A stretch of 45,314 nucleotides of DNA from a virus. The position numbers were made by a program, and so were the translations under genes. Shown piece after piece: positions 1-31,491 of the stretch (position 1 is its first letter; every line of letters begins with the position of its first letter). The notes beneath the pieces are model-generated. The model did no database searches. It saw only the letters and a list, made by a program, of their open reading frames with translations, and had not been told where the DNA came from. The stretch lies in IMG/VR virus record IMGVR_UViG_3300045988_037298; one strand, given 5' to 3'.

Positions 1-55
1 GTTAGATTTATCCTGTATGCAGCAGATGGAACTACAAATCAGCTGGATATGCAAT
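1..55. repeat. 55-bp terminal sequence identical to 45260-45314 (circular-assembly overlap or terminal redundancy)
   Basis: GTTAGATTTATCCTGTATGCAGCAGATGGAACTACAAATCAGCTGGATATGCAAT is present at both ends in the same orientation. Confidence 0.95.
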
Positions 56-951
56 CTGTCCCTGTGGTGATAGATGTGGACGCACTTACCCATGAAGAGA
101 TATTTAATCTTCTTACAAATAATGGTTCCATGAAAGGAATTTATAAAGAGGGCAACCAGTTATATATTTCGTTTACTTATGCGAAGGGCGGAACGTTAAA
201 GCTTGGCGGTCCAAATAATGGATATGGCACCTTTGAGGTGTATGACGCGAATGGAAATATAATAACCCAAATAGATAACTCGGTTGGGTTTAAAAACTTC
301 AAGGGAAAAGAGTGGTTCCAGATAAATGAATCTGTAGCTACAGCTGGTTACGATTCCTCCCTTGTTCATGGACTTCTTGATTTATCCGCGCAATACTCTG
401 ATGGATATTGGACTGTTTTGGAGAGCAAACAAGCTGGTCTTCTTTTAAAAACAGTATCTAGGATGAAAGTTGAGACAACCGGAAGCAGTTCTCTGACTCT
501 CAATGTGCCAGAAATGCCTAAGCTTATAACCGGTAGTAACTTGGGGAAAAATAATAATGGAGATGTCGGAACAATTGCGTCATCCTCTATGCATTATAAA
601 GTACTCGGGAAAACCGTAAAAGAAGACGAACTGGAAGACCTCTATAAAGTCAAGGTAATCTGGGCGAAGTACAAAGACGGATACCTTATGGAACAAGACG
701 AACGGTGCGGTAAAGAAATGCCAATGTTCATCGCGGAGGATATTGACCGAAGATTTCCAATCGCTGTCGATCATAACGAAAAAGGACATGCTGAAAACTG
801 GAACTATCGTATTATGATTCCCTGTATGTTCGCAATGTTAAAAAATGAGCATGAAAAAGTTAAAAATCTACAATCCGAGCTTGATTCCGTGAGAGCGGAA
901 TTGAATGAATTAAAGCAACTTATCAAACAACATATTTCAATGGAGGTATAA
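1..951 (+). CDS. C-terminal part of the tail fibre / receptor-binding protein (continuation of 41807-45314 across the junction)
   Basis: The frame is open from nt 1 (VRFILYAADGTTNQLDMQ...) and is in the same phase as the open frame at the window end once the overlap is merged. Stop TAA at 949-951. The C-terminus (MPMFIAEDIDRRFPIAVDH..NWNYRIMIPCMFAMLKNEHEKVKNLQSEL) resembles intramolecular-chaperone (peptidase S74-like) fibre ends, followed by a coiled coil. Confidence 0.8.
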   Translation, partial: VRFILYAADGTTNQLDMQSVPVVIDVDALTHEEIFNLLTNNGSMKGIYKEGNQLYISFTYAKGGTLKLGGPNNGYGTFEVYDANGNIITQIDNSVGFKNFKGKEWFQINESVATAGYDSSLVHGLLDLSAQYSDGYWTVLESKQAGLLLKTVSRMKVETTGSSSLTLNVPEMPKLITGSNLGKNNNGDVGTIASSSMHYKVLGKTVKEDELEDLYKVKVIWAKYKDGYLMEQDERCGKEMPMFIAEDIDRRFPIAVDHNEKGHAENWNYRIMIPCMFAMLKNEHEKVKNLQSELDSVRAELNELKQLIKQHISMEV

Positions 952-955
952 GATT

Positions 956-1420
956 ATGGCTAATAATACTTGGAAAAATTACACACAGAAAAATACAGCT
1001 TTATCGGATAATGATGAAGTTATGCTGTTGGATTCCGCTGACGGAAAGAACAAACGCGGACTGATGAGCAAATTTTGGGATTATGTCGTTGATAAAATGT
1101 CAACGGCTGTTATCAGTAAATTGGAAACTGAAAACAAGACCGTTATTGGGGCACTTAACTATTTATATGGCAACTCATTATCGCAAAAGACAGAAAATAT
1201 TGCGCAATTGCCTGATGGAAATAAAGTTAAATTAATATCGATAGGTGGTTCCGGAATTGATGTTGGTAGTACAGGTGAAAAAATTCCATCATGGTCTTTT
1301 GGAATATTTTTACCAAGTAGTGGAGGGTCTGATGCTTGTTTACTTTGTGCTAATTCAACACAGATTACCTTAGCATACAAATCAAGTGGTGTTTGGGTTT
1401 CTTGTAAAAGAATCGGATAA
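956..1420 (+). CDS. small tail-fibre-associated protein (154 aa); constant N-terminus (aa 1-72) plus the currently expressed variable C-terminal domain
   Basis: ATG 956 lies 9 nt after GGAGG and immediately after the fibre gene. The beta-rich C-terminus is followed by a palindromic hairpin. Codons N68-Y-L-Y-G72 coincide with the inverted repeat. Confidence 0.65.
   Translation: MANNTWKNYTQKNTALSDNDEVMLLDSADGKNKRGLMSKFWDYVVDKMSTAVISKLETENKTVIGALNYLYGNSLSQKTENIAQLPDGNKVKLISIGGSGIDVGSTGEKIPSWSFGIFLPSSGGSDACLLCANSTQITLAYKSSGVWVSCKRIG
1156..1173 (+). repeat. left inverted repeat (IRL) of the putative invertible segment
   Basis: TAACTATTTATATGGCAA. The exact reverse complement is at 1744-1761. Confidence 0.95.
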
Positions 1421-1438
1421 GATGATCATCTTATCCGA
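1413..1438. terminator. 26-bp perfect palindrome between the two convergent cassettes (bidirectional hairpin)
   Basis: TCGGATAAGATGA/TCATCTTATCCGA. It overlaps the stop codon of the 956-1420 gene. Confidence 0.55.
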
Positions 1439-1466
1439 AAGTGGCAGAATAAATAAATCTTAAAAA

Positions 1467-1761
1467 TTATACTTTTGCAAGAGCGCATTGCATCCAAATA
1501 CTTGATGTAATATGTAAATGCAATGTAACACCATCTGTTAGGCTTACATAATTTTCAGCAGAATTTCCAACCCACAATATTTTTCCAGTTTTACTGGCAT
1601 TGTCACCGGTTGTTATTACGGCAAAAAAAGTATTCACAATTGAACCATCGCCAACAAACGACATAAAAAAAATATATGTAGACATTCCATTTAAAACATA
1701 GTCTCTCTGTAAACCAGTTCCCATGTAAGCATTTATTAATGTCTTGCCATATAAATAGTTA
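1467..1761 (-). other. silent, start-less alternative C-terminal cassette (92 aa after the shared NYLYG) for the 956 gene
   Basis: The minus-strand frame is open from IRR to stop 1467-1469. It has no ATG with an SD; the track start is a TTG just outside the repeat. It reads ..ANYLYGKTLINAY.., parallel to ..ALNYLYGNSLSQK.. in the plus gene. Confidence 0.6.
1744..1761 (-). repeat. right inverted repeat (IRR) of the putative invertible segment
   Basis: TTGCCATATAAATAGTTA is the reverse complement of 1156-1173. Similarity extends to 25 bp with 2 mismatches on the inner side. Confidence 0.95.
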
Positions 1762-1987
1762 GCGAAAAATAAATAAAATCGCAAAACTCTATTCGCAAAA
1801 GATAATACATGATATAATCAGTATATCACAACAGCAAAAAGAGAGCTGAGTTCCCGACTACCAATCAAAAAGTTCAGCTCCAAGCACCACAAAGGGTACG
1901 ACTATATTATAACATAGTACCTTCCCTTTGCGGCAACAACAGCCATGATTCCGTGAAATTTAATCATGGTAGGTATATTGTATAAAA

Positions 1988-2024
1988 ATGTGGGGCTGAA
2001 ATTCACAATTGCTCGTTGTATCAT
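1988..2024 (+). promoter_or_regulatory. putative late promoter, copy A (ATGTGGGG-N23-TATCAT)
   Basis: Same 8-mer and same spacing as the copies at 22334 and 31102. It lies 30 nt upstream of the endolysin start. Confidence 0.5.
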
Positions 2025-2053
2025 GTACTTATCAATATGAAAGGAATGATATA

Positions 2054-3058
2054 ATGAGCAAATTACAGGAATTTTTAAACCTTGGTGATTATTACGCATC
2101 AAACGGCGGGTACCTTGAAAAGAAAAGTAATGCCTATCTGGATGATTTTAAAAAGAATGCAGGATATAACAATTACACTAAATTTGCAAGAGATGTGAAT
2201 AGATGGGGGCAGCCAGGATGCCAGGGGCAGCCGTGGTGCGCGGAGTACCAGTTTTGGAAACTGGTGAATGTTTTGGGAATTACAAAAGCCTTGCAGATTA
2301 TGGGCGGCGGATTTTATAACTGTGTGTCTATCACTAATCATGCTAAAGCAAACGGAACTTGGCGCAGCACGCCAAAAGTCGGCGCACTTGTAATCTTCCG
2401 CAATGGCTCCCATATTGGAAGTGTGCAGAGTTTAACCAGTTCAAACATTAACACAAATGAGGGAAATACTTCCAGTGCACCGGGAGTTGTAGCCAACGGA
2501 GGAGCAGTCCGTAACAAAACTTATGCTATCAATGATCCATCTATTGATGGTTATGTATGGATTGATTGGGAATCCTACGAGGATACCACAACCTGGAAAA
2601 AAACAGGAACCAGAGTAGCAATTGTGAATGATCTGTATGTCCGTGAAACACCGAATGGATATGTAATGGGTTCCATTGATAAAGATACTGTTGTTGATAT
2701 TGATGGAAAAACAAGTGGAAAGTGGACGCATGTAAAAGTTTCCGGAATTGGAATTGGCTGGATCTGGACTGGATACTTGGAAAAGGAGGGTGGATCCACA
2801 TCCGCTGCCATTACAGGAAAACAGGATAAGACACAGGTGCTTTTCAAGGGAAATGTAACTGCCACTGTGCTTAATGTGCGTACTTGGGCTGGAACTGAGT
2901 ACCCGAACATCAAAAAATACCCAAAGCTCAACCAGGGAAATGAAGTGGAAGTAATGAATTTTACCCAGAAAGATAAAAACGGTAGTAAGTGGTATTATGT
3001 CCGTATTTCTGGAAAGTATTATGGCTTTGTATCTGCAAAATATATCAAAAAGCAGTAA
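2054..3058 (+). CDS. endolysin: N-terminal CHAP amidase/peptidase plus two SH3-type cell-wall-binding repeats
   Basis: GQPWCAEYQFW (Cys) and GALVIFRNGSHIGSV (His) are CHAP motifs. Two SH3_3-like repeats are present (..VNDLYVRETPNG.., ..LNVRTWAGTEYP..WYYVRISGKYYGFVSAKYI). ATG 2054 is in frame with track ORF 2009-3058. Confidence 0.85.
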   Translation: MSKLQEFLNLGDYYASNGGYLEKKSNAYLDDFKKNAGYNNYTKFARDVNRWGQPGCQGQPWCAEYQFWKLVNVLGITKALQIMGGGFYNCVSITNHAKANGTWRSTPKVGALVIFRNGSHIGSVQSLTSSNINTNEGNTSSAPGVVANGGAVRNKTYAINDPSIDGYVWIDWESYEDTTTWKKTGTRVAIVNDLYVRETPNGYVMGSIDKDTVVDIDGKTSGKWTHVKVSGIGIGWIWTGYLEKEGGSTSAAITGKQDKTQVLFKGNVTATVLNVRTWAGTEYPNIKKYPKLNQGNEVEVMNFTQKDKNGSKWYYVRISGKYYGFVSAKYIKKQ

Positions 3059-3064
3059 AAATTA

Positions 3065-3096
3065 TCCCGGGGTTAATTCCCCCGGGAATTTCTTTT
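3065..3096. terminator. rho-independent terminator shared by the endolysin (+) and the recombinase (-)
   Basis: Stem TCCCGGGG/CCCCGGGA, followed by a T-rich tract on the plus strand and preceded by an A-tract (a T-tract on the minus strand). Confidence 0.7.
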
Positions 3097-3154
3097 ATTT
3101 AATTACTGATAACATCAATGGGCTAGTTCGCCAGCACATAGAAGATATCATTAA

Positions 3155-4726
3155 TTATTTTTCTTGGATTTTCGGGAAAATGTCTAGCTGAAAACCAATC
3201 TCGTTGCCCTTCCCATAAGCGTTTTTAGTATCTTTTGAGTAGGCAACCTTTTCAATCAAACTCTTAAGCATTTTATTCTTCGATTCCGTGTCAAGGCTCC
3301 AATAGTTATCAAGTAGCTCTTCACAACGCGGGATAAAATCTGATTGTTGTTTTATAATGTTTTCGTCGTGTTTGATTTCTTCTTTTAATTTTTCTATAGT
3401 ATCGGAGCAAGACTGGATAGATGCGGATATTGTTTTGGCACGTTCAAGGAAAACCTCAGTGGTATAGATACCCTGTTCGAGTAGGTCATATTGTTTTGCT
3501 TTTTGGGCGTTTAAGCTTTCCAGCTCGTTTTCTTTTTCATGTATGAGATTTTGTTTAGAAATTATTGTTAAATCAATAGCCTGTGAAGATGTATTAATAT
3601 CATTGTTTAACTTATATTTCTCCACAATCTCCCTAATTCCATCAAGCACAGCTTTTTCAACCAGAGATAACTTGCTGCTCACTGTGGGGCAAGACGTATA
3701 TGGACACATGAGGGTATCTTCCTGCCCGCGCTTTTGATAAGGGCGGCGAACCATGGCGCGACCACATTTGCTGCAATAGACAATTCCGGAAAGCGGGTTG
3801 CGGATTGAGTTTTTTATACTGATTGGGCGAGGTGGGTTCTTTTTTCGTATTTCCTGTACAGAGTTAAATAGATCCTCTGATATAATAGCCGGATGTAATC
3901 CATCACAAATAAGAGTATCTTTTGATCGAGGACGTGTTTTAATTACCTGGCCATTTTGTATAGTTTTTACTGTTTTTCGGCCATTCCACCGGATTTTCCC
4001 GATGTATACCGGATTTGTTAGGATCCCCTGTATACTGGCAGGAGTCCAGTCGCCGCATAGTGCAGATTCTATTCCCATTTCATTTAATTTCCGTGCAATC
4101 TTCGCAACTCCAATTTGTTCGCAGCCATCACCGGCATACCAGGTGTAGATCATTTTTACAATCTCAGCTTGAGTCGGAACAGGTCGGAGAGTATAGCCTT
4201 TTTCTTTTTCGAGCTTAACTCTTTCGTATCCGTAAGGTGGTTTGTTGCCACAGTATTTCCCTTCTTTTACTGATGAGATCCTTCCGGCGTTCAGTCGGCG
4301 CTTGATGGTTTTATATTCTCTTCGGCTCATAAATAGTCCAAACTCAAAATACTCTTCATCAAATTCATTGTTCGGGTCGTATATTTTTGTTGGGGTAATA
4401 ATCTTCGTGTCGGAATATTGGAATGCTCTGGACACAACACCTTGGTCGATTGTGTCACCTCTGGCAAGACGTTCAACTTCCACAACCAGAACTCCATCCC
4501 ACATACCGGATTCTACCTCATGTAGAAGCTGCTGCATAACAGGACGGTCGGCGATAGTTTCTCCAGATACCACTTCACGGTAAATTGCACCCACAATGTA
4601 CTCTTTTTTCTTTGCGAGATCTAACAAGATCCGTTCATGTCTAGCAAGAGTTTCACCCTCTCCATGTGCTTCAGCTTCCCGATCAGCTCTGGATTTCCTT
4701 AGATAGATACATACCGATTCATTCAT
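3155..4726 (-). CDS. large serine recombinase (phage integrase candidate)
   Basis: 523 aa. The N-terminal resolvase domain has the catalytic Ser in YLRKSRADRE. It also has a recombinase domain, a zinc ribbon (CSKCGRAM..CPYTSCP) and a C-terminal coiled coil. Confidence 0.9.
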   Translation of the reverse strand: MNESVCIYLRKSRADREAEAHGEGETLARHERILLDLAKKKEYIVGAIYREVVSGETIADRPVMQQLLHEVESGMWDGVLVVEVERLARGDTIDQGVVSRAFQYSDTKIITPTKIYDPNNEFDEEYFEFGLFMSRREYKTIKRRLNAGRISSVKEGKYCGNKPPYGYERVKLEKEKGYTLRPVPTQAEIVKMIYTWYAGDGCEQIGVAKIARKLNEMGIESALCGDWTPASIQGILTNPVYIGKIRWNGRKTVKTIQNGQVIKTRPRSKDTLICDGLHPAIISEDLFNSVQEIRKKNPPRPISIKNSIRNPLSGIVYCSKCGRAMVRRPYQKRGQEDTLMCPYTSCPTVSSKLSLVEKAVLDGIREIVEKYKLNNDINTSSQAIDLTIISKQNLIHEKENELESLNAQKAKQYDLLEQGIYTTEVFLERAKTISASIQSCSDTIEKLKEEIKHDENIIKQQSDFIPRCEELLDNYWSLDTESKNKMLKSLIEKVAYSKDTKNAYGKGNEIGFQLDIFPKIQEK

Positions 4727-4973: not shown

Positions 4974-5882
4974 ATGAAAAGAAACAAGAAAATTTTAACA
5001 GTTATCACAATCTTATTGCTCATTGTATGTATGGCGGTTCCGGTATCGGCAGCGGGCAAGATCAATAAGAAAAAAGCCACTTTGAAAGTCGGTCAAACAT
5101 TACAATTAAAAGTAACCGGTACAAAGGGAAAGGTAAAATGGAAAAGTAGTAAGAAATCTGTTGCAACGGTATCTTCTAAGGGACGCGTAAAAGCAAAGAA
5201 AAAAGGATCCGCAACGATTACTGCAAAGGTCGGAAAAAAGAAATACACTTGTAAAGTTACCGTTAAAAAGCCAGCTACTAACAGTAATGGTGGTTTTAGT
5301 GGAAATACAAATGCGAATACAAATGCTAATACCAGCGGTAAAAAGAACGTTGTAACCTATCATGCGGAATCGACACCGTATGGAGCAGTGGCAATTCTGG
5401 AAAACCATTATGACTATACAGTTGATTTAACTGTTGAATTTGTGTATTATCTGAATGGTTCTATGATCGGAACAAGCAAAGGATATAATTACGCTTTTGC
5501 GCCACACTCAAAATGTGCGCTTCAAGGTTGGAATCATGATAAGACCTGGGATTCCTTCAAAATAAATTTGAAAATAGAAAAAGCTTCAAATACTATAACG
5601 AATAATTCTGGCATTCGCTATTCTTCGAATTTTGGAGATAACAACGTAATGGTTGAGGTGAAAAATGTAGGTAGAAAAAACTATTCCACTCAGATAGGAG
5701 TTGTATTTTATCAGAATGGAAGAATTGTAGGTTATAATTATAATTACGCCCATGTGGAAAATCCTGGATCAACTGCTTATCTTCAATTTAATTTTCCGTA
5801 TGACAGGGATTACAATGATATTATCCCGGATAGATACGAGGTATATGTAAATAATTCGTACACGTACAGCTGGATGAATTAA
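4974..5882 (+). CDS. secreted protein: signal peptide, Big_2-like Ig domain, Asn/Thr linker, two beta-sandwich (FxLYD-like) repeats
   Basis: MKRNKKILTVITILLLIVCMAVPVSA is a signal peptide. ATLKVGQTLQLKV..ATVSSKGRVKAKKKGSATITAKV is Big_2-like. There is an internal duplication (..VEFVYYLNGSMIGTSKGYNYAF.. / ..IGVVFYQNGRIVGYNYNYAH..). The gene has its own promoter and terminator. Confidence 0.75.
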   Translation: MKRNKKILTVITILLLIVCMAVPVSAAGKINKKKATLKVGQTLQLKVTGTKGKVKWKSSKKSVATVSSKGRVKAKKKGSATITAKVGKKKYTCKVTVKKPATNSNGGFSGNTNANTNANTSGKKNVVTYHAESTPYGAVAILENHYDYTVDLTVEFVYYLNGSMIGTSKGYNYAFAPHSKCALQGWNHDKTWDSFKINLKIEKASNTITNNSGIRYSSNFGDNNVMVEVKNVGRKNYSTQIGVVFYQNGRIVGYNYNYAHVENPGSTAYLQFNFPYDRDYNDIIPDRYEVYVNNSYTYSWMN

Positions 5883-31138: not shown

Positions 31139-31417
31139 AATCTTGCAAGGCGTGGTGAACCTTGTAGGGCTTGCTGATTAGAAGTTTTTGCTTTCTTTTT
31201 CGTTTCATGTCCTCCTTTCTTTGTGAATATGTCCTTAATAGAAACAGATTTGAGCGGAATCTGGAGGTTGAAAAGCGGATGCAATTTCCGGCATATTCAT
31301 TAGTCAGTTCGACTGACTGGTAACACCTCCTTATAAATGAATCAACATTTCCGTGAAAGTCGGATAGTGGCAGGCATAACACGATAAATACCTTGCTAAC
31401 CCGGGAATCCGGGTTAA

Positions 31418-31491
31418 TGGAATGTAGCTCAGTTGGAAGAGCGGAGGACGCATAGTCCTTGACACCGCAGGTTCGAGTCCTGCCTTTCCAA
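31418..31491 (+). tRNA. tRNA-like gene, anticodon CAT (Met/Ile2-type), with non-canonical features
   Basis: Cloverleaf: acceptor TGGAATG/CTTTCCA (one U-U mismatch), D arm GCTC-AGTTGGAA-GAGC, anticodon arm GAGGA-CGCATAG-TCCTT, T arm GCAGG-TTCGAGT-CCTGC. It has G at position 33, a 6-nt variable loop and no encoded CCA. Confidence 0.55.

Follow-up and report, generated by a model that had tools for sequence, protein, structure and literature searches.

How does a phage that carries no dedicated invertase gene come to possess a gene whose 3' end looks invertible? The question is raised by the IMG/VR virus record IMGVR_UViG_3300045988_037298, a stretch of 45,314 nucleotides (hereafter the window), which is a complete circular phage genome, as its ends overlap and identical 45.3–45.4-kb contigs exist. 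Directly 3' of the collagen-repeat tail-fibre gene lies a gene for a protein of 154 amino acids (aa) that contains one arm of an inverted repeat, the other arm lying beyond its stop codon (1156–1761; Table 1). An earlier note on this DNA, made from the letters alone, had proposed that the enclosed segment is an inversion switch exchanging the C-terminal domain of this protein. Our analysis supports the switch and points to an origin other than the one envisaged: with a probability of roughly 80%, window 1156–1761 is the invertible part, with two cassettes, of a phage shufflon of the tyrosine-recombinase type that has lost its recombinase gene by deletion and is left as an orphaned two-state switch.

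The 18-mer TAACTATTTATATGGCAA is found at 1156–1173 on the plus strand and its exact reverse complement at 1744–1761, and the inverted repeat stretches to 25 nt at 92% identity (1156–1180/1737–1761). Just two copies occur in the 45-kb window when up to two mismatches are allowed, and 100 dinucleotide-preserving shuffles yielded not a single match. The two copies share one reading phase (T-AAC-TAT-TTA-TAT-GGC-AA), appearing as codons N68-Y-L-Y-G72 of gene 956–1420 and as the same peptide in a minus-strand frame, which confirms the coordinates and phase given in the earlier note. The minus-strand frame stays open for 92 further codons past the repeat, up to a stop at 1467–1469. By inspection its sole upstream start is a TTG (1784) just outside the repeat, lacking a Shine-Dalgarno sequence, in agreement with the claim that the frame has neither a ribosome-binding site nor an ATG of its own. 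After a flip, the 92-aa end KTLINAYMGTG...CALAKV would take the place of the 82-aa end NSLSQKTEN...SCKRIG.

Proteins closely matching this composition exist. The query was the hypothetical 164-aa protein in which residues 1–72 are joined to the alternative 92-residue end, and three full-length 164-aa proteins from independent assemblies (P0001, P0002 and P0003) proved 98%, 96% and 95% identical to it at 100% coverage. In total 2107 proteins matched the predicted fusion at E ≤ 0.001, many of them more distant, and each of two full-length queries had more than 2,000 protein matches at this threshold. The locus encoding P0002 (L002) comes from the same phage type and has the same gene order of tail fibre, 164-aa gene, CHAP/SH3 lysin and large serine recombinase. 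Its alignment to the window runs on the plus strand over 1–1180, is inverted over 1156–1761 at 98.8% identity and returns to the plus strand over 1737–3985. In L009 the same segment is inverted with 606 of 606 positions identical between collinear flanks, and L013 and L096 are likewise inverted; the alignment switches in these four loci place the inversion breakpoints inside the repeats. Over the whole set with an inverted segment (L002, L003–L008, L009, L013 and L096) its identity is 95.6–100% and the flanks are collinear. Both orientations and the fusion protein occur in nature, and the core of the earlier proposal, an invertible switch fusing residues 1–72 to a new C-terminus, is borne out. 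A reading without any switching, which takes the minus-strand frame for a small gene in its own right and ascribes the repeat to chance or to a structural role, can point to the 85-aa open reading frame (ORF) that gene callers annotate there. Given that shuffling never reproduced the repeat and that the frame lacks both a Shine-Dalgarno sequence and a proper start, it has next to no chance of being right, and it was rejected on the natural full-length fusions and the precise inversions in many contigs.

A survey of IMG/VR placed this locus in a much larger family. It yielded 185 relatives, of which 80 loci were examined, their counts not being phylogenetically independent. The constant N-terminus is 74–100% conserved across loci that carry many different C-termini, with about 30–50 cassette families among only about 90 loci (clustering gave 54, some of them spurious; families F2, F10, F13 and F28–F35, silent and found with two mismatches, are probably other genes and were ignored). 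For cassette A (family F0), 24 loci have it in the active and 24 in the silent position; for cassette B (family F1) the corresponding numbers are 13 and six, and a reciprocal arrangement was seen for six cassette pairs. At least 12 identical alleles of the constant region occur with A-type as well as B-type ends, and the same allele is also found with other cassettes. The recombination sites have a shared architecture, in which the arm on the constant-region side is conserved (11 nt, 1156–1166 in the window), 63 of 66 partner-site pairs have the same 7-bp core and the cassette-side arm is not conserved, the four nucleotides adjacent to the core matching in 23 of 66 loci only. Two core types were distinguished, ATGGCAA after ...NYL[Y/N]G and ATAGTGA after ...NALNS.

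The enzyme that the window lacks is present in part of this family. A recombinase gene with a PF00589 domain was found in L003–L007, L019, L020, L023, L062, L072–L077, L109 and L113–L115. In L003–L007 the A/B segment is more than 99% identical to that of the window, while the tail-fibre flank is just 87.6% identical, and a 330-aa tyrosine recombinase, encoded at 5876–6868 in L003, directly adjoins the segment by the distal site. The recombinases of the relatives score best against the XerA, XerC and XerD models of NCBIfam, below the curated cut-offs, and no Rci model matched. Three recombinase clades track the core type, with clade a (L003 type) accompanying ATGGCAA and clade b (L062 type) accompanying ATAGTGA. 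L003 possesses four sites with the common sequence ATATGGCAA, arranged as constant region, R1(+), cassette B forward and cassette A reverse, R2(−), recombinase, R3(+), cassette D forward and cassette C reverse, and R4(−), and all four cassettes are open and in frame directly after a conserved Tyr-Gly.

Comparison of near-identical contigs captured this arrangement in several states. What sets L003 and L005 apart is only the orientation of the 1.2-kb recombinase-bearing segment, with 100% identity across the inverted segment and right flank and 99.97% in the left flank. L003 and L114 have flanks 99.96–100% identical and both the A/B and C/D segments inverted, and L008 has lost exactly the stretch between R2 and R4, two sites in direct orientation. 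In this arrangement the recombinase gene is itself part of an invertible segment (L003 5789–6985, compared with L005 and L113–L115) that was found in both orientations in otherwise identical contigs. As judged from these genome comparisons, the L003-type system is an active multiple-inversion shufflon. Among the predicted proteins, 102-aa ORFs beginning MNSCFTKQYG... (P0091 and similar) were observed in 31 contigs and represent cassette B at the fourth shufflon site, a further permutation.

What became of the recombinase gene in the window can be read from the spacer that follows the distal repeat. Window 1764–1930 matches L062 5841–6013, upstream of the clade-b tyrosine recombinase gene of that locus, and window 1940–2060 matches L062 6995–7114 at 97.5%, covering this gene's 3' terminal part and its downstream sequence. 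The in-frame stretch at 1940–1985, ...S-HDSVKFNHGRYIV-stop (...SHDSVKFNHGRYIV-stop), is identical to the C-terminus of the 333-aa recombinase encoded at L062 6039–7040 over its last 14 residues and retains no catalytic residues; everything from the ribosome-binding site through about codon 318 is missing. As the spacer matches both sides of the L062 gene and keeps a 14-codon remnant of it, the recombinase gene has been deleted, and the switch is thereby orphaned. The earlier note had likened the locus to the Gin, Cin and Pin switches and remarked on the absent invertase gene; the relatives' PF00589 gene and the remnant speak against a system built to work without its own invertase and for a reduced tyrosine-recombinase shufflon.

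The remnant motif was detected in 24 loci, 22 of them without a full-length recombinase gene. An identical deletion junction is shared by the window (A active), L002, L013 and L096 (B active) and L048 and L058 (other cassette pairs). Because this junction is common to A-active and B-active genomes, it suggests a single ancestral deletion with both orientations inside the recombinase-less lineage, indicating that the window's switch has inverted at least once within that lineage. At least three independent classes of deletion junction were distinguished, so loss of the recombinase is recurrent. Another group of loci carries a NUMOD1 homing-endonuclease-like ORF at the recombinase position; in L018 (6046–7056), and also in L022, L026, L027, L035, L042, L085 and L086, this 336-aa ORF sits exactly in place of the recombinase gene and a 25-codon 3' remnant is left.

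The window itself offers a single candidate enzyme. Pfam scans of the 154-aa protein and of 35 other window ORFs, among them all sizeable ones apart from the tape-measure and tail-fibre genes, detected no small serine invertase and no tyrosine recombinase, and tblastn of the window with the clade-a recombinase found no further recombinase. The sole recombinase recognized was the 523-aa large serine recombinase, the only PF00239 protein, so the earlier observation that the genome has no dedicated invertase gene was upheld. One option raised at that time was that this enzyme both integrates the phage and inverts the segment, and it is indeed the only recombinase in the genome, located 1.4 kb from the distal repeat. 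Its attachment site argues otherwise. In the genome of the cultured Ruminococcus sp. GCA_040919205.1, prophage L094 ends just past the lysin gene, abutting a truncated host cotJC, and homology between the window and L094 stops at ~3118–3135, which places attP there; the best match of the 18-bp repeat in the attP region has six mismatches in 18 positions. Moreover, the same enzyme (95–97% identical) is found beside both core types, in 17 loci with ATGGCAA and 14 loci with ATAGTGA, whereas it is the tyrosine recombinase clade that tracks the core, and the corresponding locus of the relatives has a dedicated tyrosine recombinase of which the window has a scar. Large serine recombinases normally join non-identical attP and attB sites of about 40–50 bp, not identical 18-bp sites. 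A dual role is very improbable and was rejected as an explanation; by its sequence context, the large serine recombinase is the phage integrase and not the invertase. In integrated prophages its gene is located at the far prophage end, and its absence near a locus was not counted as evidence. Integration takes place into the host cotJC gene, which encodes a Mn-catalase of the spore coat (window ~3059–3154, L094 11967–12228, L106 7456–7572). The prophage junctions abut a truncated 37–68-aa Mn_catalase ORF followed by cotJB and cotJA, an arrangement that recalls sporulation-gene intervening elements.

In the mechanism that we propose, the 72-codon constant N-terminus would end in a recombination site made up of the conserved arm TAACTATTTAT and the 7-bp core ATGGCAA, and an inverted copy of this site would precede an opposite-strand cassette without promoter or start. 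Exchange of strands inside the core would turn the 570-bp segment round, so that the constant part is continued in frame by cassette B and no longer by A. The switched part would be the C-terminal domain, about 80–110 residues long, of the small protein whose gene directly follows that of the collagen-like tail fibre. Within the family the probable catalyst is the XerC/D-like tyrosine recombinase of about 330 aa encoded beside or inside the invertible DNA, full versions comprising four sites, four cassettes and an invertible recombinase segment. The window's switch could now flip only with a cognate recombinase supplied in trans, for instance by a co-resident related prophage, and would otherwise be locked in state A.

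It is possible, and in our estimate doubtful, that the orphaned switch is still active in this way, with the host or a related prophage in the same cell supplying a cognate tyrosine recombinase that acts in trans on the 18-bp sites and gives a population mixed for A and B. Both orientations are present among genomes with the same deletion junction, cassette B, although silent, is intact and matches expressed copies at 100% identity, and the recombinase was lost repeatedly with cassettes and sites kept. Recombinase-bearing relatives integrate at the same host locus next to cotJ in the same kind of host, and a trans-supplied invertase has been proposed for an analogous recombinase-less bifidophage inversion (PMC6109161). 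Counting against continued activity, near-isogenic pairs of opposite orientation are readily found for recombinase-bearing phages and none was found in the window's lineage, and the attachment site shared by the relatives makes stable co-residence less straightforward.

Inversion could also proceed with no site-specific enzyme, by RecA-dependent recombination or template switching between the perfect 18–25-bp repeats. Exact repeats have a median length of 18 bp and reach 32 bp (L028) in loci without a nearby tyrosine recombinase, in comparison to 9–12 bp in recombinase-bearing loci (survey of L002–L093), a difference that shared ancestry confounds. L002 and L013 also carry the same T-to-A variant in both arms, suggesting homogenization between the arms. 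However, the breakpoints fit site-specific exchange equally well, and an 18-bp repeat is very short for RecA-dependent recombination; we consider this route improbable. Only tentatively can it be put forward that orphan two-cassette switches in general keep flipping without a recombinase in cis, through one borrowed from related prophages or through repeats lengthened to 18–32 bp, and that loss of the gene is adaptive streamlining.

Several observations weigh against the interpretation of the window as an orphaned tyrosine-recombinase shufflon module or limit its reach. The scar derives from a clade-b gene, elsewhere paired with ATAGTGA, and the window's sites have the clade-a core ATGGCAA. 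This combination makes the module a mosaic, and given the mosaic a recombinase of either clade may have flipped it last. In the window's own lineage inversion was seen at 92–98% flank identity only, and no near-isogenic pair of opposite orientation was found in the recombinase-less lineage, the best pair being L009 and L098 with flanks 98.0% and 93.8% identical; orientation differences could consequently be old or have spread via recombination in the flanks. The missing pairs are compatible with rare or no flipping after recombinase loss, and sampling is thin. A search of IMG/VR with the exact flipped-junction 38-mer gave no match, as the pattern is too strain-specific. The case for a tyrosine recombinase as the catalyst is argued from adjacency, site architecture and correlation, and the counts across related loci are not independent. 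The receptor-binding role discussed below is proposed with no significant structural match and with a form-A model of low confidence.

The function of the switchable protein was approached through profile searches and structure prediction. Neither the 154-aa nor the 164-aa protein belongs to a family in Pfam, PHROGs or NCBIfam, and profile searches of PDB sequences returned nothing meaningful. The form-B model reached a predicted local distance difference test score (pLDDT) of 76 and has an N-terminal domain joined by a hinge of low confidence, located at the junction, to a C-terminal domain that is all-beta and confidently modelled, in keeping with the constant region (956–1171) being presumably an anchor domain followed by a hinge. 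In Foldseek this model had no significant match, the best being phage tailspikes at E ~0.007 with low TM-scores, and the form-A model reached a pLDDT of just 46. With no significant match, receptor binding is still something we infer: the C-terminal domain presumably binds a host receptor, as suggested by the gene position after the tail fibre and by the form-B model. The host is probably a Ruminococcus-type bacterium of the human gut, judging from a protein and a contig of an NCBI isolate, Ruminococcus sp. GCA_040919205.1.

The module also appears to move between phage backbones. The invertible A/B segment is 99–100% conserved where the tail-fibre and lysin flanks are 88–98% conserved (window compared with L003–L007, L009 and L101–L105). 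This higher conservation of the segment suggests that the cassette module was recently exchanged horizontally between phage backbones, or alternatively that it is under unusually strong constraint. In L001 (MT835739.1), a close relative with a recombinase region 93% identical and a tail-fibre end 76–83% identical, the switch position is occupied by an unrelated 193-aa gene (3877–4458) without an inverted repeat, next to a different lysin. Two contig scans of GTDB representative genomes, one with the 154-aa protein and one with an N-terminal alignment, found no relatives, and tblastn against annotated phage records gave one match only, 48% identical, confined to the N-terminal part and located on an unannotated faecal contig.

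Between the two convergent cassettes lies a perfect palindrome (1413–1438, 13 + 13), 100% conserved in all A/B loci, which the earlier note had taken for a transcription terminator in either orientation. The palindrome is real, and it scores as an intrinsic terminator only leftward, on the minus strand, where the hairpin is followed by TTCTTTT; in the present state no T-run follows it. It looks like an element that would terminate the gene in the flipped, B-expressing state, so that a convincing terminator is predicted for one state and not for both. A second hairpin (1843–1880) in the spacer has a 10-bp stem in which four pairs show compensatory double changes across seven loci, and an upstream A-tract gives it a terminator-like look for leftward transcription. 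Its counterpart in relatives sits upstream of the tyrosine recombinase gene.

The logic of this locus had been likened to the Gin (Mu G), Cin (P1 C) and Pin (e14) switches, to which Min (p15B) can be added, and the functional likeness stands: in all of them a tail-fibre protein receives a different C-terminal part when DNA inverts at a repeat that is in frame within the gene, as we found here, and in the known switches this alters host range. Gin, Cin, Pin and Min are small serine invertases that work with Fis-dependent enhancers and act on sites of about 26 bp. No adjacent small (~190-aa) invertase with only a PF00239 domain was found in the window, and relatives encode tyrosine recombinases; the absence of a serine invertase and the different site type exclude the locus from the Gin/Cin/Pin family.

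The window system belongs with the known tyrosine-recombinase shufflons as a further member, the closest published examples being Rin, a ~500-bp bifidophage inversion and a BV01-like shufflon. The Rin shufflon was described in dnaJ2-integrated prophages of Bifidobacterium by Mavrich et al. 2018 (PMC6109161) and also occurs in Eggerthella lenta prophages (PMC8778435). It is phage-encoded, and inversion fuses the constant N-terminal part of a receptor-binding or tail protein to alternative C-terminal cassettes; correspondingly, a constant part with at least two in-frame promoter-less cassettes is present in the window (A and B), and four cassettes are present in L003. In Rin a short asymmetric crossover site (the 11-bp rix; PMC6109161) precedes each cassette, and the sites here are asymmetric as well. 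The XerD-like tyrosine recombinase without an arm-binding domain that lies beside the Rin cassettes is paralleled by the XerC/D-type enzymes next to the cassettes in relatives such as L003 and L062, not in the window, and Rin inversions were deduced from near-identical genomes, as for L003/L005 and L003/L114. The systems differ in host (Actinobacteria in comparison to Ruminococcus-type Firmicutes) and in site, TTCCCTAACCC of 11 bp as opposed to 18 bp with core ATGGCAA. Unlike Rin, the cassettes here are in convergent pairs, the recombinase gene of relatives lies within the invertible segment and that of the window is deleted. The likeness to Rin and Rc is one of layout.

Bifidophages 689b-1 and Bb423phi2, which are integrated at tRNA-Met (PMC6109161), come closest to the window's reduced state. 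They contain a two-state inversion of ~500–600 bp that spans the 3' end of a structural gene together with a small opposite-strand segment, with a short repeat and no flanking recombinase, and a trans-acting invertase was proposed for them (PMC6109161). The window differs in that its origin is traceable through the scar, the 14-codon remnant and intact multi-cassette relatives, and in its repeat of 18 bp compared with 8 bp. The general mechanism was already known, since the 2018 paper (PMC6109161) reported shufflons with a tyrosine invertase on phage receptor-binding proteins as well as a two-state inversion of ~500 bp without a recombinase.

More distant parallels are provided by the R64/IncI shufflon, in which the tyrosine recombinase Rci switches the C-terminus of a surface adhesin by multiple inversion (PMC11852207). 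In the Rci sfx site a 7-bp core is combined with a conserved arm of 12 bp and a variable arm (PMC11852207), and the sites here are analogous, with an 11-nt arm, a 7-bp core and a variable cassette-side arm. Site sequences are unrelated, neither an Rci recombinase nor a pilV target was found, and the R64 target is the PilV pilus tip adhesin of a conjugative plasmid as opposed to a phage fibre protein. A BV01-like Phocaeicola phage shufflon reported in a 2026 preprint (PMC13596623) is likewise multi-cassette, belongs to a gut temperate phage and overlaps a tail-fibre gene at its distal end. It is recombinase-flanked, has ~10-bp directional motifs and was confirmed as active from reads (PMC13596623), and it differs from the present system in its Bacteroidota host, unrelated sequences and retained recombinase. 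In the literature we found no report of such a shufflon in Firmicutes phages.

Table 1. Features of the switch locus and its surroundings, in window coordinates.
Feature	Position	Strand	Basis or remark
Collagen-repeat tail-fibre gene, 3' end (1467 aa, wraps around the circular genome)	1–951	+	ORF list; PF01391 call in identical contigs; PHROG tail-protein matches
Form A gene (154 aa, present state: constant N-terminus + cassette A)	956–1420	+	ORF frames; identical protein P0117 in 5 contigs
Constant region, codons 1–72, ending ...L-N-Y-L-Y-G	956–1171	+	Conserved across loci with many different C-termini
Proximal recombination site (left inverted repeat)	1156–1173	+	Arm 1156–1166 (constant-region side) and 7-bp core ATGGCAA 1167–1173
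Cassette A, 82-aa variable C-terminus NSLSQKTEN...SCKRIG + stop	1172–1420	+	Cassette family F0
Invertible segment, 570 bp, two convergent cassettes	1174–1743		Inverted in L002, L003–L008, L009, L013, L096
Palindrome, 26 bp, perfect, between convergent cassettes, overlapping the cassette A stop codon	1413–1438		
Silent cassette B, 92 codons KTLINAYMGTG...CALAKV + stop 1467–1469, intact	1467–1745	−	Cassette family F1; expressed as N-terminus-plus-B fusion in P0001–P0053 and others
Distal recombination site (right inverted repeat), core TTGCCAT at 1744–1750	1744–1761	−	
Spacer, former recombinase locus with deletion scar, 292 bp between distal repeat and lysin gene	1762–2053	+	
Conserved hairpin in spacer	1843–1880	+	10-bp stem with compensatory changes
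3' remnant of deleted tyrosine recombinase gene	1940–1985	+	In-frame identity to L062 recombinase C-terminus
CHAP/SH3 lysin gene	2054–3058		
attP of large serine recombinase	~3118–3135		Homology with prophage L094 ends there
Large serine recombinase gene, 523 aa	3155–4726		

Further observations were made in the surroundings of the switch. Gene callers report silent cassettes as stand-alone small genes, in the window as the 85-aa ORF at 1467–1724 (minus strand). No recognizable holin gene was seen beside the CHAP/SH3 lysin gene (window 1762–3058); in relatives whose lysin is of the amidase type, the corresponding position is occupied by a PF05105 holin. Within the head-morphogenesis region, a RAGATH-21 RNA scoring 93 bits (gathering score 70) is located about 120 nt upstream of a tRNA gene (31224–31299 and 31418–31491).

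In summary, these loci constitute a very abundant and apparently undescribed shufflon family in human-gut Ruminococcus-type phages, whose host range is probably programmable by DNA inversion. Assemblies of such genomes freeze one arbitrary switch state, and silent cassettes are mis-annotated as separate genes. The window illustrates how these systems decay or simplify, with the recombinase gene repeatedly lost and the cassettes and sites persisting, and together with its relatives it forms a natural series suited to the question of whether orphan invertons can still be switched in trans. If orphans do flip by means of a borrowed recombinase, competing phages would share a recombinase pool, and loss of the gene would represent streamlining rather than decay.

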